Positions 1 through 5,314 of a stretch of 5,314 nucleotides of DNA are shown piece by piece (the stretch's first letter is position 1; each line of letters begins with the position of its first letter). Both the position numbers and the translations under genes were made by a program. The DNA is from Candidatus Iainarchaeum sp. (lineage in GTDB: Archaea > Iainarchaeota > Iainarchaeia > Iainarchaeales > CSSED10-239): the NCBI GenBank assembly GCA_003559395.1, contig PWLL01000069.1, positions 1 to 5,314 on the forward strand, written 5' to 3'. The notes beneath the pieces were generated by a model. It had not been told where the DNA came from, made no database searches, and saw only the letters and a program-made list of their open reading frames with translations.

Positions 1-8
1 CGCGATCT

Positions 9-40
9 GTTTATAAATGTTTCGTATCCTATATTTAATA
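9..40 (+). promoter_or_regulatory. candidate archaeal TATA boxes for the 16S rRNA transcript (TTTATAAA 11-18; CTATATTT 29-36)
   Basis: Two TATA-like octamers lie about 85-110 nt upstream of the 16S processing stem. The second matches the C-TATAT motif also seen upstream of tRNA-Tyr, ORF 2083 and ORF 4345. TATA-like strings are common by chance in DNA this AT-rich. Confidence 0.3.
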
Positions 41-120
41 TTATTACTTTGTAAATTCATTTTATGAAGTGATAGTAAACTCGAATTATTTTATGAGGAT
101 TCAAGTTTCTTTGAATCTGA

Positions 121-149
121 TGTTAGGAGATAGCAGAAAATGACATAAT
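121..149 (+). other. 5' strand of the pre-16S rRNA processing stem
   Basis: TGTTAGGAGAT (121-131) is perfectly complementary to ATCTCCTAACA (1708-1718). TGACATAAT (141-149) is perfectly complementary to ATTATGTCA (1699-1707). The two helices are separated by a 9-nt bulge, AGCAGAAAA (132-140), on this strand only, and they bracket the mature 16S. Confidence 0.7.
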
Positions 150-183
150 ATTAAGATTAATTGTGTGCATTTATGAAGAACCA

Positions 184-1678
184 ATTCCAGCTGATCCTGC
201 TGGTGGGTACTGCTATTGGAATCTGACTAAGACATGCAAGTCTGAAAGCTTCAACTATGAGGAGTTTTGGCAGACGGCTCAGTAACGCGTGGTCAACCTA
301 CCTTTTTGACAAGTTAAACTTGGGAAACTGAGTATAATGCTTGATAGGTAAACAAATCTGGAATGATTGTTTACTCAAAGGTCTTACATTCATGTTTGTA
401 AGATGCAAAAAGATGGGACTGCGTCAGATTAGGTTGTTGGTAGGGTAATTGCTTACCAAGCCAAAGATCTGTACGGGTCTTGAAAGAGAGCGCCCGGAGA
501 AGGGAACTGAGATAATGTCCCTAGCCCTACGGGGTGCAGCAGTTACGAAACTTTTACAATGCGGGAAACCGTGATAAAGAAATTCCAAGTGCCTGCAAAA
601 ACAGGCTTTTGTATAGTGTAAACAGCTATGCGAATAAGGGGAGGGCAATATACGTGCCAGCCGCCGCGGTAATACGTAATCCCCAAGTGGTATCCAGCTT
701 TATTTGGCTTAAAGCGTGTGTAGCTGGTTTATTAAGTCTTTTGTGAAAGCAGTATGCTTAACATATTGAATTGCAAAAGATACTGGTAGGCTAGAGATAG
801 GAAGACGTTGAGGGTATTCTTGGAGTAGGAGTAGAATCTTAAGATACCAAGAAGACCATCTGTGGCGAAGGCGCTCAACGAGGACTAATCTGACAGTGAG
901 ACACGAAAGCTGGGGGCGCAACCCGGATTAGATACCCGGTTAGTCCCAGCCGTAAACGATGCGGATTAGGTGTTGGGATAACCACGAGTTATTTCAGGGC
1001 CGAAGAGAAATCATTAAATCCGCCGCCTGGGAAGTACTGTCGCAAGACTGAAACTTAATGGAATTGGCGGGGGTGCACTACAAGGGGTGGATGCTGCGGT
1101 TTAATTGGATGAAACGCCAGAGAATCTTACCAGAATAGACAGCAAGATGATGGTCAGTCTGAAGGGCTTACCTGATGCGCTGAGAGGTGCTGTATGGTCA
1201 TCGCCAGCTCGTACTGCGAAGCTTCCTGTTAACTCAGGTAACGGGCGAGACCCACATTATTAGTTGCTATCTTGTTTCTTAGAAACAGGAGCACTCTAAT
1301 AAGACTGCATTGGTAACAATGAGGAAGGAGTGGGCGACGGTAGATCTGTATAGCCCGATCGTTCTGGGCAACACGCGGCATACAATGGTTAAGACAAAGA
1401 GTATCTAACCTGAGAAGGGGTGGTAATCTCAAAAACTTAACCCAAGTTCGGATTGTGGGTTGCAACTCACCCACATGAAGATGGAATCCCCAGTAATCGC
1501 ATGTCATTATCATGCGGTGAATATGTCCCTGCGCCTTGCACACACCGCCCATCAAGCCAGTTGAGTAAAGTGTGGATGAATTTTAGTTTACTAAAGGCTA
1601 AAATTATTCTATATTTTGCGAGACGGACTAAGTTGTAACAAGGTGTCCGTAGGGGAACCTGCGGACGGATCACCTCCT
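184..1678 (+). rRNA. rrs: 16S (small-subunit) ribosomal RNA, archaeal, complete (about 1495 nt)
   Basis: Conserved SSU blocks were read directly. They are ATTCCAGCTGATCCTGCTGG (184-), GTGCCAGCCGCCGCGGTAATAC (654-675), GGATTAGATACCC (925-937), AAACTTAATGGAATTGGCGGGGG (1051-1073, archaeal type), GCACACACCGCCCATCAAG (1538-1556), AAGTTGTAACAAGG (1630-1643) and GGATCACCTCCT (1667-1678). Differences in helix 1 (CCAGC/GCTGG versus the usual CCGGU/GCCGG) and in h45 are compensatory, so the gene looks functional. All six track ORFs inside 424-1673 are artefacts of the rRNA. Confidence 0.97.
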
Positions 1679-1698
1679 AAATTTAACGATTGTCTAAA

Positions 1699-1718
1699 AT
1701 TATGTCAATCTCCTAACA
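1699..1718 (+). other. 3' strand of the pre-16S rRNA processing stem
   Basis: ATTATGTCA-ATCTCCTAACA is a continuous 20-nt complement of 141-149 plus 121-131. Confidence 0.7.
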
Positions 1719-1729
1719 CTATTTGAGTC

Positions 1730-1738
1730 TTTTTTTTT
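1730..1738 (+). terminator. oligo-T tract (T9) between the 16S and tRNA-Ala, a candidate archaeal terminator
   Basis: Nine consecutive T residues lie directly after the 3' strand of the processing stem. Archaeal RNA polymerase terminates at oligo-T runs. Confidence 0.5.
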
Positions 1739-1786
1739 ATAACCCTATTATTTTTTAAATAGTTATGACTATATAATATTTATAGA

Positions 1787-1859
1787 GGGCTCTTGGCTCA
1801 GTTGGTAGAGCGCTTCCCTTGCAAGGAAGAGGTCGCGAGTTCGAATCTCGCAGAGTCCA
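1787..1859 (+). tRNA. tRNA-Ala (anticodon UGC), 73 nt, no encoded CCA
   Basis: It folds as a cloverleaf by hand: GGGCTCT/AGAGTCC acceptor with the G3:U70 alanine identity pair, GCTC/GAGC D stem, CTTCC/GGAAG anticodon stem, CTTGCAA loop, GCGAG/CTCGC T stem, TTCGAAT T loop and discriminator A. Confidence 0.97.
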
Positions 1860-1860
1860 C

Positions 1861-1865
1861 TTTTT
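1861..1865 (+). terminator. oligo-T (T5, followed by CTATTTT) after tRNA-Ala(UGC)
   Basis: The T run starts 2 nt after the tRNA discriminator base. Confidence 0.45.
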
Positions 1866-2068
1866 CTATTTTAAATTGTGTTTATATTTTTTTATTTAAC
1901 ACGCGTTGTTTGATTTGTTGGACGAGTTATTTATTTTTTTTCCAAAAATATTTTTCATATTAAATTAAAATAAAATCTATTAAAAAATTTTAAAAAAAGA
2001 TTGATTTTCAAAGATACATATATTTATAAACAATAACAATCACTATATATATAAATCTTTTAAAAAAA

Positions 2069-2074
2069 AGGAGG
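2069..2074 (+). promoter_or_regulatory. Shine-Dalgarno site AGGAGG for ORF 2083
   Basis: It is a perfect complement to the 3' end of the 16S in this window (..GGATCACCTCCT) and lies 8 nt upstream of the ATG at 2083. Confidence 0.6.
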
Positions 2075-2082
2075 AAAAAACA

Positions 2083-2532
2083 ATGTTAGATATATTAATG
2101 AATATACCACAAAACATGGATGCTCTTGGAGCAGCAGGTATATTAGGTTCTTTATTTGCAATGTTTGCAGGTGCTTTTATTGCAGCTCTTGTTGTGATGA
2201 TTGGACTTTACGTATATTACGCTTTAGTTTTCCAAACTATTGCAAAAAAACTAAAATTTGATAAGCCATGGTTAGCATGGATACCAATAGCAAATCTTTT
2301 CTTAATTCCAATTTTAGCTAAAAAACACTGGGCATGGGGATTTATATTTTTAGTTCCTATTGTCAATGCTGTTTTTTACTTTATATGGATGTGGAAAATA
2401 TTTGAGCTTAGAAAATATCCTGGCTGGTTATGTTTAACACCTTTGTTAACAATTATACCATTGATCGGTGTAGTATTTTCTATAGGTTATCTAGTCTTAC
2501 TAGGATTAGTTGCATGGAAAGATTTAAAATAA
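2083..2532 (+). CDS. small polytopic membrane protein (149 aa, about 4 TM segments), hypothetical; resembles DUF5684-type small membrane proteins
   Basis: The ORF is long for DNA this AT-rich and has a strong SD. Hydrophobic segments are separated by short K/W-rich loops, with an internal repeat AWIPIANLF / FLVPIVNAVF. The family assignment is from memory of the (A/W)IPxxN motif pattern and is not a search result. Confidence 0.85.
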   Translation: MLDILMNIPQNMDALGAAGILGSLFAMFAGAFIAALVVMIGLYVYYALVFQTIAKKLKFDKPWLAWIPIANLFLIPILAKKHWAWGFIFLVPIVNAVFYFIWMWKIFELRKYPGWLCLTPLLTIIPLIGVVFSIGYLVLLGLVAWKDLK

Positions 2533-2539
2533 ATCTTTC

Positions 2540-2554
2540 TTTTTTTCTTTTTTT
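2540..2554 (+). terminator. two T7 runs (2540-2546, 2548-2554) after ORF 2083
   Basis: TTTTTTTCTTTTTTT begins 8 nt after the TAA stop. Confidence 0.55.
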
Positions 2555-2561
2555 AAATATA

Positions 2562-2635
2562 GGGCTCTTAGCTTAGTTCGGTAAAGCGCTTGGTTGGCAA
2601 TCAAGAGATCGTGAGTTCAAATCTCGCAGAGTCCA
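2562..2635 (+). tRNA. tRNA-Ala (anticodon GGC), 74 nt, no encoded CCA
   Basis: It has the GGGCTCT/AGAGTCC acceptor with G3:U70, a GCTT/AAGC D stem, a CTTGG/TCAAG anticodon stem, the loop TTGGCAA, a GTGAG/CTCGC T stem, the T loop TTCAAAT and discriminator A. Confidence 0.95.
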
Positions 2636-2651
2636 GAGAAACGTGATATTT

Positions 2652-3362
2652 ATGATTAATCTAAAAAACATATTTTTGTACCCTTTTATAAACATAAAAT
2701 ATTTAATGTTTTTTATGTTATTTTCTTTTTTACCTTTATTATATATGGATTTAGTTTTTCCAGCTTTAATCGTAATTATTTTTCTAACACCTGCCATTAT
2801 TGGTTACAAATTAATAAACAAAAAACTAACAACTTACAAAAAAGACTGTAAGAAAATAACCAACTTTTTTTTAATATCTGCAATAACAACCATCATTTAT
2901 TCTGTTATTCAAGTTATTGTTTTTGTTATTTCTGTTATTATTTTTTATTTGTTTTTTTTATCAATAATTGATTTTATGTTTTTAGAAGATTTTATTATTA
3001 GTCCTTGGGTAATTGCAGGCTTAATTGCTTTATTTATTATTACTTTTATAATAATCTTTTTTGTAGAAATATTAAAAACATTTGGACTTGTAAGATATTT
3101 TAAAACACAAAAATTTAATAAGATCTTTGATATAAAAACACACACAAAACAGATCTTTTCTTCAAACTTTTTTATAGGTTTTTTATATTTTTTAGGATAT
3201 CTGTTAATATATTTGTTGATTGCAACAACTCTAAGCTTTATTATTATTGTTTTCTTTGAATTGTTTGCTGAAAGATTAATTGTTTTTTTATTTTTGTTTT
3301 TAGTATATGTTATATATGCAGGAATAATAAATGTTTGTTATAGAACCATAATTGCAAAATAA
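2652..3362 (+). CDS. polytopic membrane protein (about 236 aa, 5-6 TM segments), hypothetical; possibly DUF4013-like
   Basis: A 720-nt open frame in DNA this AT-rich is unlikely by chance. The product is strongly F/I/L-rich with short K-rich loops. The track ORF opens at GTG 2643, and the first ATG is 2652. Alternative starts are ATG 2706 and ATG 2715, and ATG 2715 lies about 27-30 nt after TTTATAAA (2685-2692). The N-terminal LYPF...P..IGY pattern recalls DUF4013 proteins from memory only. No SD is visible. Confidence 0.72.
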   Translation: MINLKNIFLYPFINIKYLMFFMLFSFLPLLYMDLVFPALIVIIFLTPAIIGYKLINKKLTTYKKDCKKITNFFLISAITTIIYSVIQVIVFVISVIIFYLFFLSIIDFMFLEDFIISPWVIAGLIALFIITFIIIFFVEILKTFGLVRYFKTQKFNKIFDIKTHTKQIFSSNFFIGFLYFLGYLLIYLLIATTLSFIIIVFFELFAERLIVFLFLFLVYVIYAGIINVCYRTIIAK

Positions 3363-3367
3363 TTTAG

Positions 3368-3388
3368 TTTATATATTTTTCTATACTT
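3368..3388 (+). promoter_or_regulatory. candidate TATA boxes for the RNase P RNA gene (TTTATATA 3368-3375; CTATACTT 3381-3388)
   Basis: CTATACTT lies about 27 nt upstream of the first base that can pair in P1 (3408-3410). The T5 run at 3376-3380 may also terminate ORF 2652. Confidence 0.3.
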
Positions 3389-3409
3389 AGATATTTTAAT
3401 GAAGAGATT

Positions 3410-3660
3410 GAAAAGTAGTTAGTGTTTAGCACGAAAGTTTTTTAAAAACTTTTGAGGAAAGTCCACCCACCAACTTTCATCAACATGATGCTTCTGTACA
3501 GAAACAACACGGCTATAAAACAAAAGCAAATGATTTGCAAAAATGATGTGTTTTATAGAATCGCTGAAAGAACAGAAGTCTGGTGCAAGAGATATTTTTC
3601 TCGCTTAGATAAATTGCTATTAACTACAGAAGGTGGCTTATGGCTAACTACTTTCTTTTC
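3410..3660 (+). ncRNA. rnpB: RNase P RNA, archaeal, reduced (about 250 nt), type-M-like C-domain
   Basis: The universal CR-I block GAGGAAAGTCC (3454-3464) and the CR-V block ACAGAAGGTGGCTTA (3626-3640) are present. P4 pairs AAG-U-CCACC (3459-3467) with GGTGGCTT (3632-3639) and keeps the conserved bulged U (3462). P1 is 3412-3422/3644-3654, P2 is 3424-3431/3615-3624, P3 is the hairpin 3432-3454, P5 is CACCA/TGGTG (3468-3472/3581-3585) followed by the conserved GCAAG, P7 is 3474-3478/3566-3570, and small P8 and P9 hairpins lie at 3478-3490 and 3492-3503. A 10-bp P10-12 stem pairs CTATAAAACA with TGTTTTATAG (3513-3522/3549-3558) and is capped by a hairpin at 3526-3538. A short P15 hairpin lies at 3589-3602. 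Confidence 0.9.
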
Positions 3661-3668
3661 AAAAAAAA

Positions 3669-3676
3669 AGGTGATC
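3669..3676 (+). promoter_or_regulatory. Shine-Dalgarno site AGGTGATC for ORF 3681
   Basis: It is an 8-nt perfect complement to the 16S 3' end (GGATCACCT) and lies 4 nt before ATG 3681. Confidence 0.65.
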
Positions 3677-3680
3677 TTAC

Positions 3681-4106
3681 ATGTCAGAAGAACAAATACA
3701 ATTTGTAGCAAACGTAGACAAATTCGTTTCTGTAAAAAAATTAAAAATAGAACCAAAAGTAACAAAAGAAGATATTGTTGAGTTTTTTGCAAGTATCCAG
3801 TTTAGTTGCAATCAAAAGATAGATGATTTTCTTGAAAAAATAGTAGATGTAGTAAAACTACAAGAACAAACAAATCAACTATTTGATTTAAAATTTAATG
3901 AATTTTATGAAGAAATCAATAAACCTAAAACCAAAAAGATAATAACAAGTCTTTTACCAAGCCATATAGAAAAAAAACAAAAAGATGCTTATGTAGAGGC
4001 AATAAGAGTTTATCTTTTAAATAAGTTTTGTGTGAAAAATAAAATCATCCTAAGCTATAACCAAGTTGTTTTTCCATCAAAGAAAAAGATAATGAAAAAG
4101 AAATAA
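3681..4106 (+). CDS. hypothetical protein (141 aa), K/E-rich, probably soluble and helical, with no family recognised
   Basis: This is the longest frame in the region, with an excellent SD and a C-terminal lysine tail. The overlapping track ORFs 3452-3781 (+) and 3553-3792 (-) are explained by the RNase P RNA instead. Confidence 0.8.
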   Translation: MSEEQIQFVANVDKFVSVKKLKIEPKVTKEDIVEFFASIQFSCNQKIDDFLEKIVDVVKLQEQTNQLFDLKFNEFYEEINKPKTKKIITSLLPSHIEKKQKDAYVEAIRVYLLNKFCVKNKIILSYNQVVFPSKKKIMKKK

Positions 4107-4128
4107 TATCTTTATAAAGGTTTATTTG

Positions 4129-4138
4129 CCTATATATT
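4129..4138 (+). promoter_or_regulatory. candidate TATA box (CCTATATATT) for tRNA-Tyr
   Basis: The C-TATATAT motif lies about 34 nt upstream of tRNA position 1, which would give a transcript leader of only a few nt. Confidence 0.4.
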
Positions 4139-4163
4139 ATATAAACAAAAATAAATTGTTTAT

Positions 4164-4264
4164 CCCTCCTTAGCATAGCGGCTAATGCGTCCGGCTGTAG
4201 ACAAAAGGCAACATCGCTTTTGGCGGTGACCGGAAGATCCCCAGTTCGAATCTGGGAGGAGGGA
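4164..4264 (+). tRNA. tRNA-Tyr (anticodon GUA) with a 28-nt intron at canonical position 37/38; mature length 73 nt, no encoded CCA
   Basis: It has a CCCTCCT/AGGAGGG acceptor with the C1:G72 pair typical of archaeal and eukaryal tRNA-Tyr, a GCAT/ATGC D stem, a TCCGG/CCGGA anticodon stem (4190-4194/4230-4234), the spliced loop CTGTAGA, the variable loop AGATC, a CCCAG/CTGGG T stem, the T loop TTCGAAT and discriminator A. Confidence 0.93.
4201..4228 (+). other. tRNA-Tyr intron with a canonical helix-bulge-helix-bulge-helix splice motif
   Basis: The outer helix pairs CAAAAG (4202-4207) with CTTTTG (4217-4222). The 5' bulge is AGA (4199-4201). The central 4-bp helix pairs CTGT (4195-4198) with GCGG (4223-4226), including two G:U pairs. 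The 3' bulge is TGA (4227-4229), followed by the anticodon stem. Cleavage after the second bulge nucleotide on each side gives an intron of 4201-4228. Confidence 0.85.
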
Positions 4265-4274
4265 ATTGATTCTA

Positions 4275-4288
4275 TTTTTCTGTTTTTT
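4275..4288 (+). terminator. oligo-T runs (T5 at 4275-4279, T6 at 4283-4288) after tRNA-Tyr
   Basis: TTTTTCTGTTTTTT starts 11 nt after the tRNA 3' end. Confidence 0.5.
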
Positions 4289-4344
4289 ATAAATCAATAA
4301 ACCTTTAAAAACAAACACTATATATATTTATGAGGGTTTTATAA

Positions 4345-5097
4345 ATGAGAAAAAAAATTTCAGAAAATCCATTGTATGATAGACTAAAAAGAACTAATAA
4401 ATCAAAGATAAAAACACCAGCACTTAAGTTTAAAATAAGCAAAATAGGAAATGTTGGGCTAGTTACAAGCCCAAAAGCAAGAATCATTATTAAAAAACAG
4501 CCAAACTTAATACCAGAGTTTTTAAGATTTATAAAACAAAGTAAAACAACAATGAAAACAAGTTCTTTTTTATTTAGAAGATTAGAACAAAAATCATTTT
4601 TAATAATTGTTGAAAATACAAAGTTTATTGTTCAAAAAATAACAAAACCAAAAGATCAAATAACTCCTCAAAAATGGGCTTCTCATGCATTTAATTCTGC
4701 AGTAATTGTTGAAGCTTTAAAAAAACAAGGAATAAATACTGTACCACTACATTTTGCGTTTACAAATCTTAAAAAGAAAGAAAGTTTTCTTGCTTATGAA
4801 CACCTGAACCTAAAAAACATAAAGCAAGCAAGAGAAGAAAAGATTATTACAGAAAAAGAACATGCAGAATTTAAAGAAAACATGTTACAGATATATACTA
4901 CTTATAGAGACAAAATAAAAACAAAAGAACTAAATATTGGTTTAAGAAAAGAAAAATTGTCTTTTTTCTTTCTCTTAGAAGAAGAAGTATTAGTTGATCC
5001 AAAAACAAAAAAATTATATGTTAATCCAACAACAGAAACACGAGAAAATCTTCAAAAAAAATTAGCTTCTGTAAGTGAGTTTGATGTGCTTCTTTAA
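4345..5097 (+). CDS. hypothetical protein (250 aa), very lysine-rich, with no confident family
   Basis: The open frame is 753 nt. GAGGG lies at 4332-4336, and CACTATATATAT (4316-4327) lies about 27 nt upstream of the ATG, so the mRNA is either leaderless or SD-led from an upstream TATA at 4286-4294. The central segment (IVQKITKP...AVIVEALKKQGINTVP...SFLAYEHL) loosely recalls the N-lobe and hinge of RIO/Bud32/Kdo-type kinases, but I cannot see an HxD...N catalytic loop. Confidence 0.85.
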   Translation: MRKKISENPLYDRLKRTNKSKIKTPALKFKISKIGNVGLVTSPKARIIIKKQPNLIPEFLRFIKQSKTTMKTSSFLFRRLEQKSFLIIVENTKFIVQKITKPKDQITPQKWASHAFNSAVIVEALKKQGINTVPLHFAFTNLKKKESFLAYEHLNLKNIKQAREEKIITEKEHAEFKENMLQIYTTYRDKIKTKELNIGLRKEKLSFFFLLEEEVLVDPKTKKLYVNPTTETRENLQKKLASVSEFDVLL

Positions 5098-5244
5098 AAG
5101 AAAATTATGTGTTTTGTAAGATTTGTTGGACGTCAATCGTGGACACATAAACTCCACAAAACCTTAAAAATTTTAAAAACCCTAAAAACACAAATATTTA
5201 AATATCTTCTTTTTATAACATATATAGTAACTTGTTAGATATTT

Positions 5245-5314
5245 ATGGCACAACAGACAGGTTTGCAAAAACCAGAAAGTATAATTATACAAAAGATAGA
5301 AGAAAACATAAAAA
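5245..5314 (+). CDS. 5' end of a CDS running off the window (MAQQTGLQKPESIIIQKIEENIK...)
   Basis: The frame from the ATG at 5245 stays open to the window edge. TTTATAAC/CATATATA (5212-5226) lies about 26-30 nt upstream, which fits a leaderless transcript. It is too short in this window to assess the coding signal. Confidence 0.4.
   Translation, partial: MAQQTGLQKPESIIIQKIEENIK

Follow-up and report, generated by a model that had tools for sequence, protein, structure and literature searches.

Archaeal RNase P RNAs (RPRs) have been assigned to several classes, which differ in the paired helices (P) and conserved regions (CRs) that they keep. The class closest to the RNA described here is type M, defined, in the passages of PMC1874661 and PMC4919922 that summarise Harris et al. 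2001, by the lack of P8, the lack of L15, P16, P17 and P6, and an elongated, uninterrupted P10/11. Methanocaldococcus jannaschii, Methanococcus maripaludis and Archaeoglobus fulgidus are the examples given where this class is treated in PMC1874661, PMC4919922 and PMC2475606. In type M, L7Ae binds kink-turns (K-turns) in P12 (PMC5499556), and the RNA alone is inactive in trans, so that proteins are required (PMC2475606); for the RPR of M. jannaschii a mass of 88 kDa is expected, or ~270 nt (PMC9371926). Type T (type P) RPRs of the Thermoproteaceae (Pyrobaculum, Caldivirga) keep L15/P16-17/P6, but most of their specificity domain has disappeared, CR-II with it (PMC3579882, PMC13462272). Here we report that a 5,314-nt stretch of archaeal DNA (contig PWLL01000069.1, positions 1 to 5,314; "the window", always meaning the whole stretch) very probably encodes, at 3408-3662 on the forward strand, the catalytic RNA subunit of a ribonucleoprotein RNase P with a type-M-like layout, in an AT-rich archaeal host.

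Reduction of RNase P has also been described in other archaeal lineages. According to a 2026 survey, P6, P16, P17, sometimes P15, and P8 were deleted independently in multiple archaeal lineages (PMC12974513). The RPRs of Nanopusillaceae, such as Ca. Nanobsidianus stetteri, lack P2 and P3 (PMC12974513 and its supplementary information), and Nanoarchaeum equitans has lost RNase P wholly (PMC12974513, PMC4919922). At least one RNase P protein is encoded in every archaeal genome examined in PMC6380272, those of DPANN among them, and the protein-only enzyme HARP was absent from all DPANN genomes examined there.

The window is a 5.3-kb, AT-rich contig with a G+C content of 26% outside its rRNA gene. 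A search with the Rfam model RNaseP_arch (RF00373) covered 3414-3652 (+) with the full model (1-288) at 96.0 bits, compared with a gathering score of 84 (E = 1.4e-26), and RF00373 was the top-scoring family for the locus among the RNase P clan families in Rfam. In shuffled versions of the window, the expected count of the composite CR-I...GCAAG...CR-V pattern was 0.00, and the minimum free energy (MFE) of the region had a z-score of -3.1 relative to shuffles. P1 pairing reaches ~3409-3661 in the MFE fold, and the length of the RNA is ~240-255 nt. An RNase P RNA at 3408-3662 had been proposed by a first-pass annotation made from the letters alone; the proposal was borne out both by this significant, full-length match above the gathering score and by compensatory changes across the helices in related genomes, as follows.

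Syntenic relatives were recovered via the neighbouring DUF2666 gene, which yielded L030, L031 (identical to L032 and L033), L034, L035 (identical to L036), L037 (identical to L038), L039 and L040. Gene order was kept on the contigs of all seven, and the RNA lay in the same gap as in the window (7/7). The 16S gene of L030 is 97.1% identical to that of the window, and the RPRs of the relatives share 62-83% identity with the window RNA, a divergence that is useful for covariation analysis. In a MAFFT alignment of the eight sequences, 89.6% of cells were paired in the fold including P4, versus 35-49% with slid 3' partners, and 28 pairs had changed on both sides; the observed values were reached in none of 500 shuffles. 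P9 and the P10/11 3' strand were placed wrongly by MAFFT (54% paired), and these helices were reassessed sequence by sequence. A covariance model, R1, was then built from the eight-sequence alignment, and 36 RPRs were recovered with it among all fetched loci. When these were aligned to R1, 92.4% of cells were paired, versus 35-45% when slid, and double changes were seen in 59 of 66 pairs. Alignment A2, of distant RPRs to model R1, cannot be relied on in the specificity domain and served for the core helices and P4 only.

The P4 pseudoknot was recovered in 99.6% of cells with three covarying pairs (36 sequences), though it had been excluded from model R1; for example, the window pair A3465-U3634 is G-C, C-G or G-U elsewhere. 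All five pairs of P2 covary among the 36 sequences; within the set of eight, P2 shows one compensatory change from C-G to U-A, in L040. A pseudoknot-free consensus from RNAalifold, in which the 5' strand of P5 paired with the 3' strand of P4, was dropped, as the canonical P4/P5 arrangement pairs better.

These data also bear on whether the locus could be a decaying or paralogous copy, with a working type A RPR or a protein-only RNase P elsewhere in the genome. An RF00373 score near the threshold is what such a copy might give. However, eight genomes have the RNA in the same syntenic place, and its helices show compensatory changes while CR-I to CR-V are invariant or nearly so, a combination that indicates purifying selection acting on the predicted structure. 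Moreover, no other RPR match, and no second or full-length type A copy, was found in the 5.3 + 14.5 + 13.2 kb (~33 kb) of the window and two relatives, and HARP has not been found in the DPANN genomes examined (PMC6380272), a point that is relevant only if the host is DPANN. We consider a decaying copy very improbable.

The interval had also been called as two open reading frames (ORFs), and both are mechanically present, which is the sole point in favour of a protein-coding region in which ORF 3452-3781 (+), ORF 3553-3792 (-) or both are real. The forward ORF starts inside P3/CR-I and overlaps, out of frame, the conserved DUF2666 gene, which has its own Shine-Dalgarno motif and ATG. In six of the seven relatives the RNA is overlapped by no ORF of at least 50 amino acids (aa); in L031 there is one of 69 aa, which is unrelated. 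Every frame across the RNA holds 3-12 stops in the seven relatives, gene callers placed no gene in the interval in any of them, and neither ORF had a Pfam hit. Thus, both overlapping ORFs are artefacts, as the first-pass annotation had already held, and we regard a protein-coding role of the region as next to impossible.

Table 1. Coordinates of the RNase P RNA, its structural elements and the surrounding features of the window.
Feature	Position	Strand	Details
16S rRNA gene	184-1678		
tRNA-Ala(UGC)	1787-1859		
Conserved hypothetical proteins	2083-2532, 2643-3362, 4345-5097		Two strongly hydrophobic, membrane-like
tRNA-Ala(GGC)	2562-2635		
TATA-box-like element	3368-3375	+	TTTATATA; TTTAWATA then GTTTCTGTRC (to 3387) upstream of the RNA in 8/8 clade members
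RNase P RNA gene	3408-3662	+	RF00373 3414-3652; model R1 3404-3665; mature ends approximate, inferred
P1, 5' strand	3412-3422	+	AAAGUAGUUAG; pairs with 3644-3654; 11/11 pairs compensatory, 95.5% of cells paired (36 sequences)
P2, 5' strand	3427-3431	+	UAGCA; pairs with UGCUA 3615-3619; 100% paired in 8 relatives
P3 hairpin	3432-3454	+	10 bp, loop UUA; 7/10 pairs double-changed, 100% of cells paired (8 relatives)
CR-I	3454-3464	+	GAGGAAAGUCC; top posterior probability in the Rfam consensus alignment
P4, 5' strand	3459-3461 and 3463-3467	+	AAG-U-CCACC, U3462 bulged; pairs with 3632-3639
P5 (or merged P5/7), 5' strand	3468-3471	+	CACC; pairs with GGUG 3582-3585; 98.6% paired, 3/4 pairs covary
Single hairpin read as P9	3478-3490	+	CAUCA-ACA-UGAUG; sole hairpin between P5 and P10/11
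P10/11, 5' strand	3491-3497	+	CUUCUGU; uninterrupted 7 bp with ACAGAAG 3572-3578
CR-II (J11/12)	3498-3509	+	ACAGAAACAACA; Rfam consensus ACAGAAACGAcA, high posterior probability; near-invariant in 8 relatives
P12	3510-3563	+	12-bp proximal stem 3510-3521/3550-3563 with 2-nt bulge
K-turn-like module, predicted L7Ae site	3526-3549	+	C-stem GCA/UGU, 3-nt bulge AAU
CR-III (J12/11)	3564-3571	+	CUGAAAGA; Rfam consensus UGAAACG; GCUGAAA invariant in 8 relatives
J5/15	3585-3589	+	GCAAG; equals Rfam consensus GCAAG; in 8/8 clade members
P15	3589-3602	+	4-bp hairpin GAGA/UCUC, U-rich loop; 14 nt between GCAAG and GCUUAG
J15/2 block	3603-3614	+	GCUUAGAUAAAU; fits Rfam consensus CGCuuAGucGAAU; nearly invariant among relatives
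CR-V	3626-3640	+	ACAGAAGGUGGCUUA; includes P4 3' strand 3632-3639
P1, 3' strand	3644-3654	+	CUAACUACUUU; followed by U-rich tail CUUUUC
Spurious ORF	3452-3781	+	109 aa, TTG start; no Pfam hit; absent from 7/7 relatives
Spurious antisense ORF	3553-3792	-	79 aa; no Pfam hit; not conserved
Shine-Dalgarno-like motif	3669-3676	+	AGGUGAUC; precedes the DUF2666 gene; GGTGA kept upstream of the start in most relatives
DUF2666 protein gene	3681-4106	+	141 aa; PF10869 at E 6e-9; ATG at 3681
Intron-containing tRNA	4164-4264	+	Rfam tRNA model 53.7 bits; missed by ARAGORN

Within the catalytic domain, the first-pass annotation had listed P1-P5, CR-I, CR-V and a bulged U at 3462, and each of these was recovered at its place (Table 1). 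CR-I to CR-V and the J15/2 block all fit the Rfam consensus and vary little or not at all in the eight relatives. On the 3' side the spacer from P10/11 to P5 measures just 3 nt (3579-3581), and a separate P7 is therefore absent. Distal to P5, the bare 4-bp hairpin at 3589-3602 that had been described earlier was likewise found: the L15 internal loop with its GGU, P16, P17 and P6 have no counterpart in the window RNA, and a P15-distal block that occupies 34 nt in the Rfam alignment is reduced to 3 nt. The P15 hairpin measures 11-14 nt in all eight clade members, with a swap from G-C to C-G in L030, and no G is conserved in its loop. The U-rich tail that follows P1 may serve as a terminator. One variant was seen in CR-I itself: at L031 2504-2749 (and its identical copies L032 and L033), GGAACGUCC replaces the universal GGAAAGUCC, which turns the second base pair of P4 into a C.U mismatch. 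As the variant was found in three independent samples from the Joint Genome Institute (JGI), it is not a sequencing error.

The specificity domain differed more from its earlier description. CR-II and CR-III, which had been considered unrecognisable, both fit the Rfam consensus and are near-invariant in the relatives. Tiny P8 and P9 hairpins had been drawn, and only one hairpin, at 3478-3490, is present; it was read as P9 because it abuts P10/11, and P8 was taken as absent because there is no second hairpin between P5 and P10/11. The Rfam P8 and P9 blocks, of 14 nt each, are reduced to 4 and 2 nt in the window RNA. What had appeared as a single 10-bp P10-12 stem consists of separate helices, P10/11 and P12, which are joined via CR-II/CR-III, and the 3/10-nt asymmetric loop assigned to that stem is a K-turn motif that is conserved in 8/8 members, with a covarying distal stem.

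Folding sequence by sequence showed a hairpin of differing sequence at the P9 position in seven of the eight clade members and none in L037. The same approach revealed compensatory variants of P10/11, namely CUUCUG/CAGAAG, CUCCUG/CAGGAG, CUUUUG/CAAGAG, CUCCUA/UAGGAG and AUAUACUG/CGGUAUAU. In the window, P10/11 shows no clear elongation, and in four relatives its 3' strand is bulged by 1-2 nt. P12 is built, in order, of a proximal stem (97.9% paired, four covarying pairs), a 4-nt bulge, the K-turn module, a 2-bp distal stem and a GCAAA loop; the two distal base pairs covary as UU/AA, CC/GG, CU/AG and AG/CU. Within the K-turn module, the tandem pairs G3532.A3546 and A3533.G3545 are followed by U3534.U3544 and then by two Watson-Crick pairs. 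This layout, with invariant UGAU...UGAU, is found in all eight clade members and aligns with the P12 motif GAuGAU/uGA of Rfam, and the double-K-turn signature GAUGAU occurs in only three of the eight. By analogy with the archaeal complexes in which L7Ae binds P12 (PMC5499556), L7Ae would be expected to bind here. Two other loci carry further-reduced specificity domains. At L037 694-925 (identical to L038), P5 is linked to P10/11 by 12 unpaired A/U residues without a P9, and at L019 949-1159 (211 nt) P12 is apparently missing, so that CR-II and CR-III are nearly adjacent.

Comparison with the known classes, which for type M was made against the published definitions and not against Methanococcales sequences, placed the window RNA nearest to type M. 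Like type M, it lacks P8, L15, P16, P17 and P6 and has a plain hairpin as P15, which upholds the type-M-like layout suggested in the first reading; P10/11 is uninterrupted though not clearly elongated, CR-I to CR-V are kept, P12 carries the sequence and secondary-structure signature of a K-turn, the RNA matches RF00373, and the tRNA genes have no encoded CCA. It departs from type M in coming from an AT-rich, non-methanogen lineage that is probably DPANN, in the lack of a separate P7, with a 4-bp P5 joining P10/11, in the non-GNRA loop of P9, and in having one K-turn signature, versus the double K-turn of type M. It had also been called even shorter than type M, and it is indeed shorter, but marginally so, at ~240-255 nt compared with ~270 nt in M. 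jannaschii.

The other two classes fit less well. With type A, as represented by Pyrococcus furiosus, Methanothermobacter and the RF00373 consensus, the window RNA has in common its catalytic core and P4 pseudoknot, as well as CR-II/CR-III and a K-turn-bearing P12. However, type A has the CCA-binding L15, P16/P17 with a K-turn, P6, P8 and P7, and the window RNA has none of these; a type A assignment was rejected on the absence of P6, P16/P17, L15 and P8. Type T and the window RNA are both naturally minimised archaeal RPRs, but the pattern is reversed: CR-II, CR-III and P12 are present in the window RNA, and it is the P15-distal region that is lost. The type T assignment was rejected for this reason. 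Relative to Nanopusillaceae and N. equitans, with which the window RNA shares a reduction of RNase P in DPANN-type archaea, the reduction is far milder, as P1-P5 are complete.

The affiliation of the host with DPANN is suggested by the likeness of its RPR to those of DPANN-labelled metagenome-assembled genomes (MAGs) and by genome style. The 16S gene of the window shares 75% identity with its counterpart in an Iainarchaeum-labelled MAG.

Several points weigh against an intact type-M-like RNase P RNA. The RF00373 score exceeds the gathering score by 12 bits only, and two clade members fall just under it, at 81 bits. The 36-sequence alignment was fitted to R1, which inflates its pairing counts, with P4 exempt. 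In the accessible 5-14 kb per genome, none of the lineage's RNase P protein genes was located. P9 is without the GNRA-type loop of other DPANN RPRs and may be dispensable, as L037 has no P9, and the 4-bp P5 that directly joins P10/11 shortens the link between the domains compared with the P7-bearing L003 and L028. Nevertheless, the type-M-like RPR remains the reading that we hold with high confidence, and the alignments show both the catalytic core and the elbow-recognition module (P9, P10/11, CR-II/CR-III, P12) to be intact, the latter in a reduced but complete form.

On this reading, the RNA would assemble with Pop5-Rpp30 on the catalytic domain, with Rpp21-Rpp29 on the specificity domain and with L7Ae at the P12 K-turn. 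The CR-II/CR-III modules would stack on the T/D-loop elbow of the pre-tRNA, and the P4 core would position Mg2+ for cleavage of the 5' leader. The RNA would make no pairing with the 3' CCA of the tRNA because L15 is missing, which fits tRNA genes without CCA; the missing L15 also implies that activity may be protein-dependent, by analogy with the type M RPR of Methanocaldococcus. The first-pass annotation had noted that the three tRNA genes of the window do not encode CCA. This was confirmed and extends to six tRNA genes in relatives, so that CCA is encoded by none of the nine. Since tRNA genes without encoded CCA are common in Archaea, this observation carries little weight.

How far such reductions extend was apparent from the other small RPRs collected. 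A scan of GTDB representative genomes with a size-restricted pattern yielded 16 archaeal loci (11 Candidatus Iainarchaeum, one Woesearchaeota, one Methanosarcinales and three labelled archaeon only) and six loci from bacteria of the candidate phyla radiation (CPR), and a metagenome scan with a size-restricted CR-I...CR-V pattern added six further loci, none close to the window. The archaeal scan loci all match RF00373, at 82-163 bits, and several DPANN-labelled RPRs, at 211-232 nt, are shorter than the window RNA. The mini-P15 is common to ~30 other small RPRs from DPANN-labelled genomes and metagenomes. Like the window RNA, the small RPRs of DPANN-labelled MAGs and metagenomes (L001-L029, 211-273 nt) have the mini-P15, GCAAG in J5/15 and the CR blocks; unlike it, many keep P8 or P7, and in some P12 is very short or absent. 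In L006, L009, L022 and L024 the mini-P15 is present and two hairpins, P8 and P9, are kept, and L003 and L028, which are the closest outgroups, retain a P7 of 4-5 bp and not P8; this dissection of the P5-P10 junction was pattern-based and left out several distant loci. The occurrence of the mini-P15 with P8 or P7 retained indicates that reduction appears to have been stepwise within these lineages, and it was probably convergent with, and independent of, that in Methanococcales. The RNA of the window is thus a known, reduced style of archaeal RNase P RNA and no new kind of molecule. In this respect the novelty implied at first was too strong, given that such reductions are widespread in DPANN-labelled genomes and are in the literature already (PMC12974513).

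Further observations were made on these loci. L018, L008, L001, L017, L011 and L029 have an additional hairpin in J2/4, which runs from the P2 3' strand to CR-V, at the place where other RNase P RNAs have P19; the window clade has none. Several of the small DPANN-labelled RPRs lie directly downstream of a 23S gene, and not beside DUF2666 as in the window. The distance is ~80-155 nt on the same strand for L001 2267-2528, L008 831-1078, L015 4690-4935(-), L017 4845-5104 and L018 2916-3168(-), and 1-2 kb for L024, L025 and L029. The shorter spacing, in Iainarchaeum-labelled MAGs, suggests co-transcription with the rRNA operon. The CPR loci, L002, L007, L010 and L021 (Dojkabacteria) and L013 and L014 (Saccharibacteria), scored 39.7-62.4 bits on R1 and have a very short stem-loop after GCAAG; apparently, these are bacterial RNase P RNAs whose P15 region has shrunk in parallel.

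We also asked whether the window clade stands apart as a distinct, further-minimised RPR subtype beyond type M, whose specificity domain is eroding stepwise and whose tRNA recognition would be more protein-dependent than that of Methanococcales type M. Its traits would be the lack of P7 and P8, a P9 that is non-GNRA or absent, a single K-turn and no J2/4 hairpin. In all eight members, a mere 0-5 nt connect P10/11 with P5 on the 3' side, which makes a P7 impossible, and the outgroups L003 and L028 keep P7. L037/L038 are without P9, the GAUGAU double K-turn is found in 3/8 members only, and the scores straddle the gathering threshold of Rfam (81-106 bits). However, the elbow-contacting elements CR-II, CR-III, P10/11 and P12 are intact and near-invariant, a merged or short P5/7 is also found in many other small DPANN RPRs, and variable deletions of such a sort in Archaea have been published already (PMC12974513). 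A separate subtype is therefore a tentative proposal that we think rather unlikely to hold, and it is just as doubtful that the clade represents a previously undescribed step in the erosion of archaeal RPRs beyond classical type M. The assignment of the window RNA to the known, type-M-like style is preferred.

Across the clade, RPR scores range from 81 to 106 bits relative to the RF00373 gathering score of 84. The RPRs of L037, L040, L016 and L019 fall just under it, at 81.0-83.7 bits, so that standard Rfam annotation would report no RNase P RNA at these loci.

Upstream of the RNA, the TATA-box-like element and the motif that follows it are conserved across the clade (Table 1), and this conservation suggests that the element may act as a promoter and the RNA may be an independent transcription unit. 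The distance from the element to P1 varies from ~30 to ~75 nt across the clade, which would give primary transcripts with 5' leaders of different lengths. Downstream, homologues of the DUF2666 protein are 58-74% identical and occupy the same position in all relatives. DUF2666 was considered as an RNase P-linked protein and rejected, as the adjacency is confined to the close clade and amounts to plain synteny. For the three conserved hypothetical proteins, Pfam gave sub-threshold matches only (DUF5684, DUF4013), and the first two keep their position in the relatives; NCBIfam provided no names for the four neighbouring proteins.

Downstream of the 16S gene come tRNA-Ala(UGC) and then protein genes, with no 23S, and L030 is arranged alike; the lack of a 23S gene beside the 16S gene implies that the rRNA genes are unlinked. 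If tRNA-Ala(UGC) is co-transcribed with the 16S rRNA it would need 5' processing, which would fit a requirement for RNase P. The tRNA at 4164-4264 and its counterpart at L037 1457-1561 have an intron of ~28-31 nt in the anticodon loop, and their anticodon is most likely GUA (Tyr). Conservation between the window and L037 includes the region upstream of the intron-containing tRNA, TTTATTTGCYTATATATTATATAAAC.

The locus leaves the understanding of the RNase P mechanism unchanged. It does correct an annotation, in that an essential RNA gene should replace two hypothetical ORFs, and it shows that, for some genomes of this clade, Rfam-dependent pipelines will list RNase P RNA as "absent" despite its presence; scores at the level of the threshold therefore matter for claims of RNase P loss in small-genome archaea. 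The occurrence of a type-M pattern in a lineage far from the methanogens that gave the class its name supports repeated, independent, protein-enabled shrinkage of the RPR in Archaea. Should the clade after all represent a further step of erosion, annotation of DPANN genomes would systematically overlook such RNAs, and the clade would provide a graded natural series from a full RPR to its complete loss in Nanoarchaeum.

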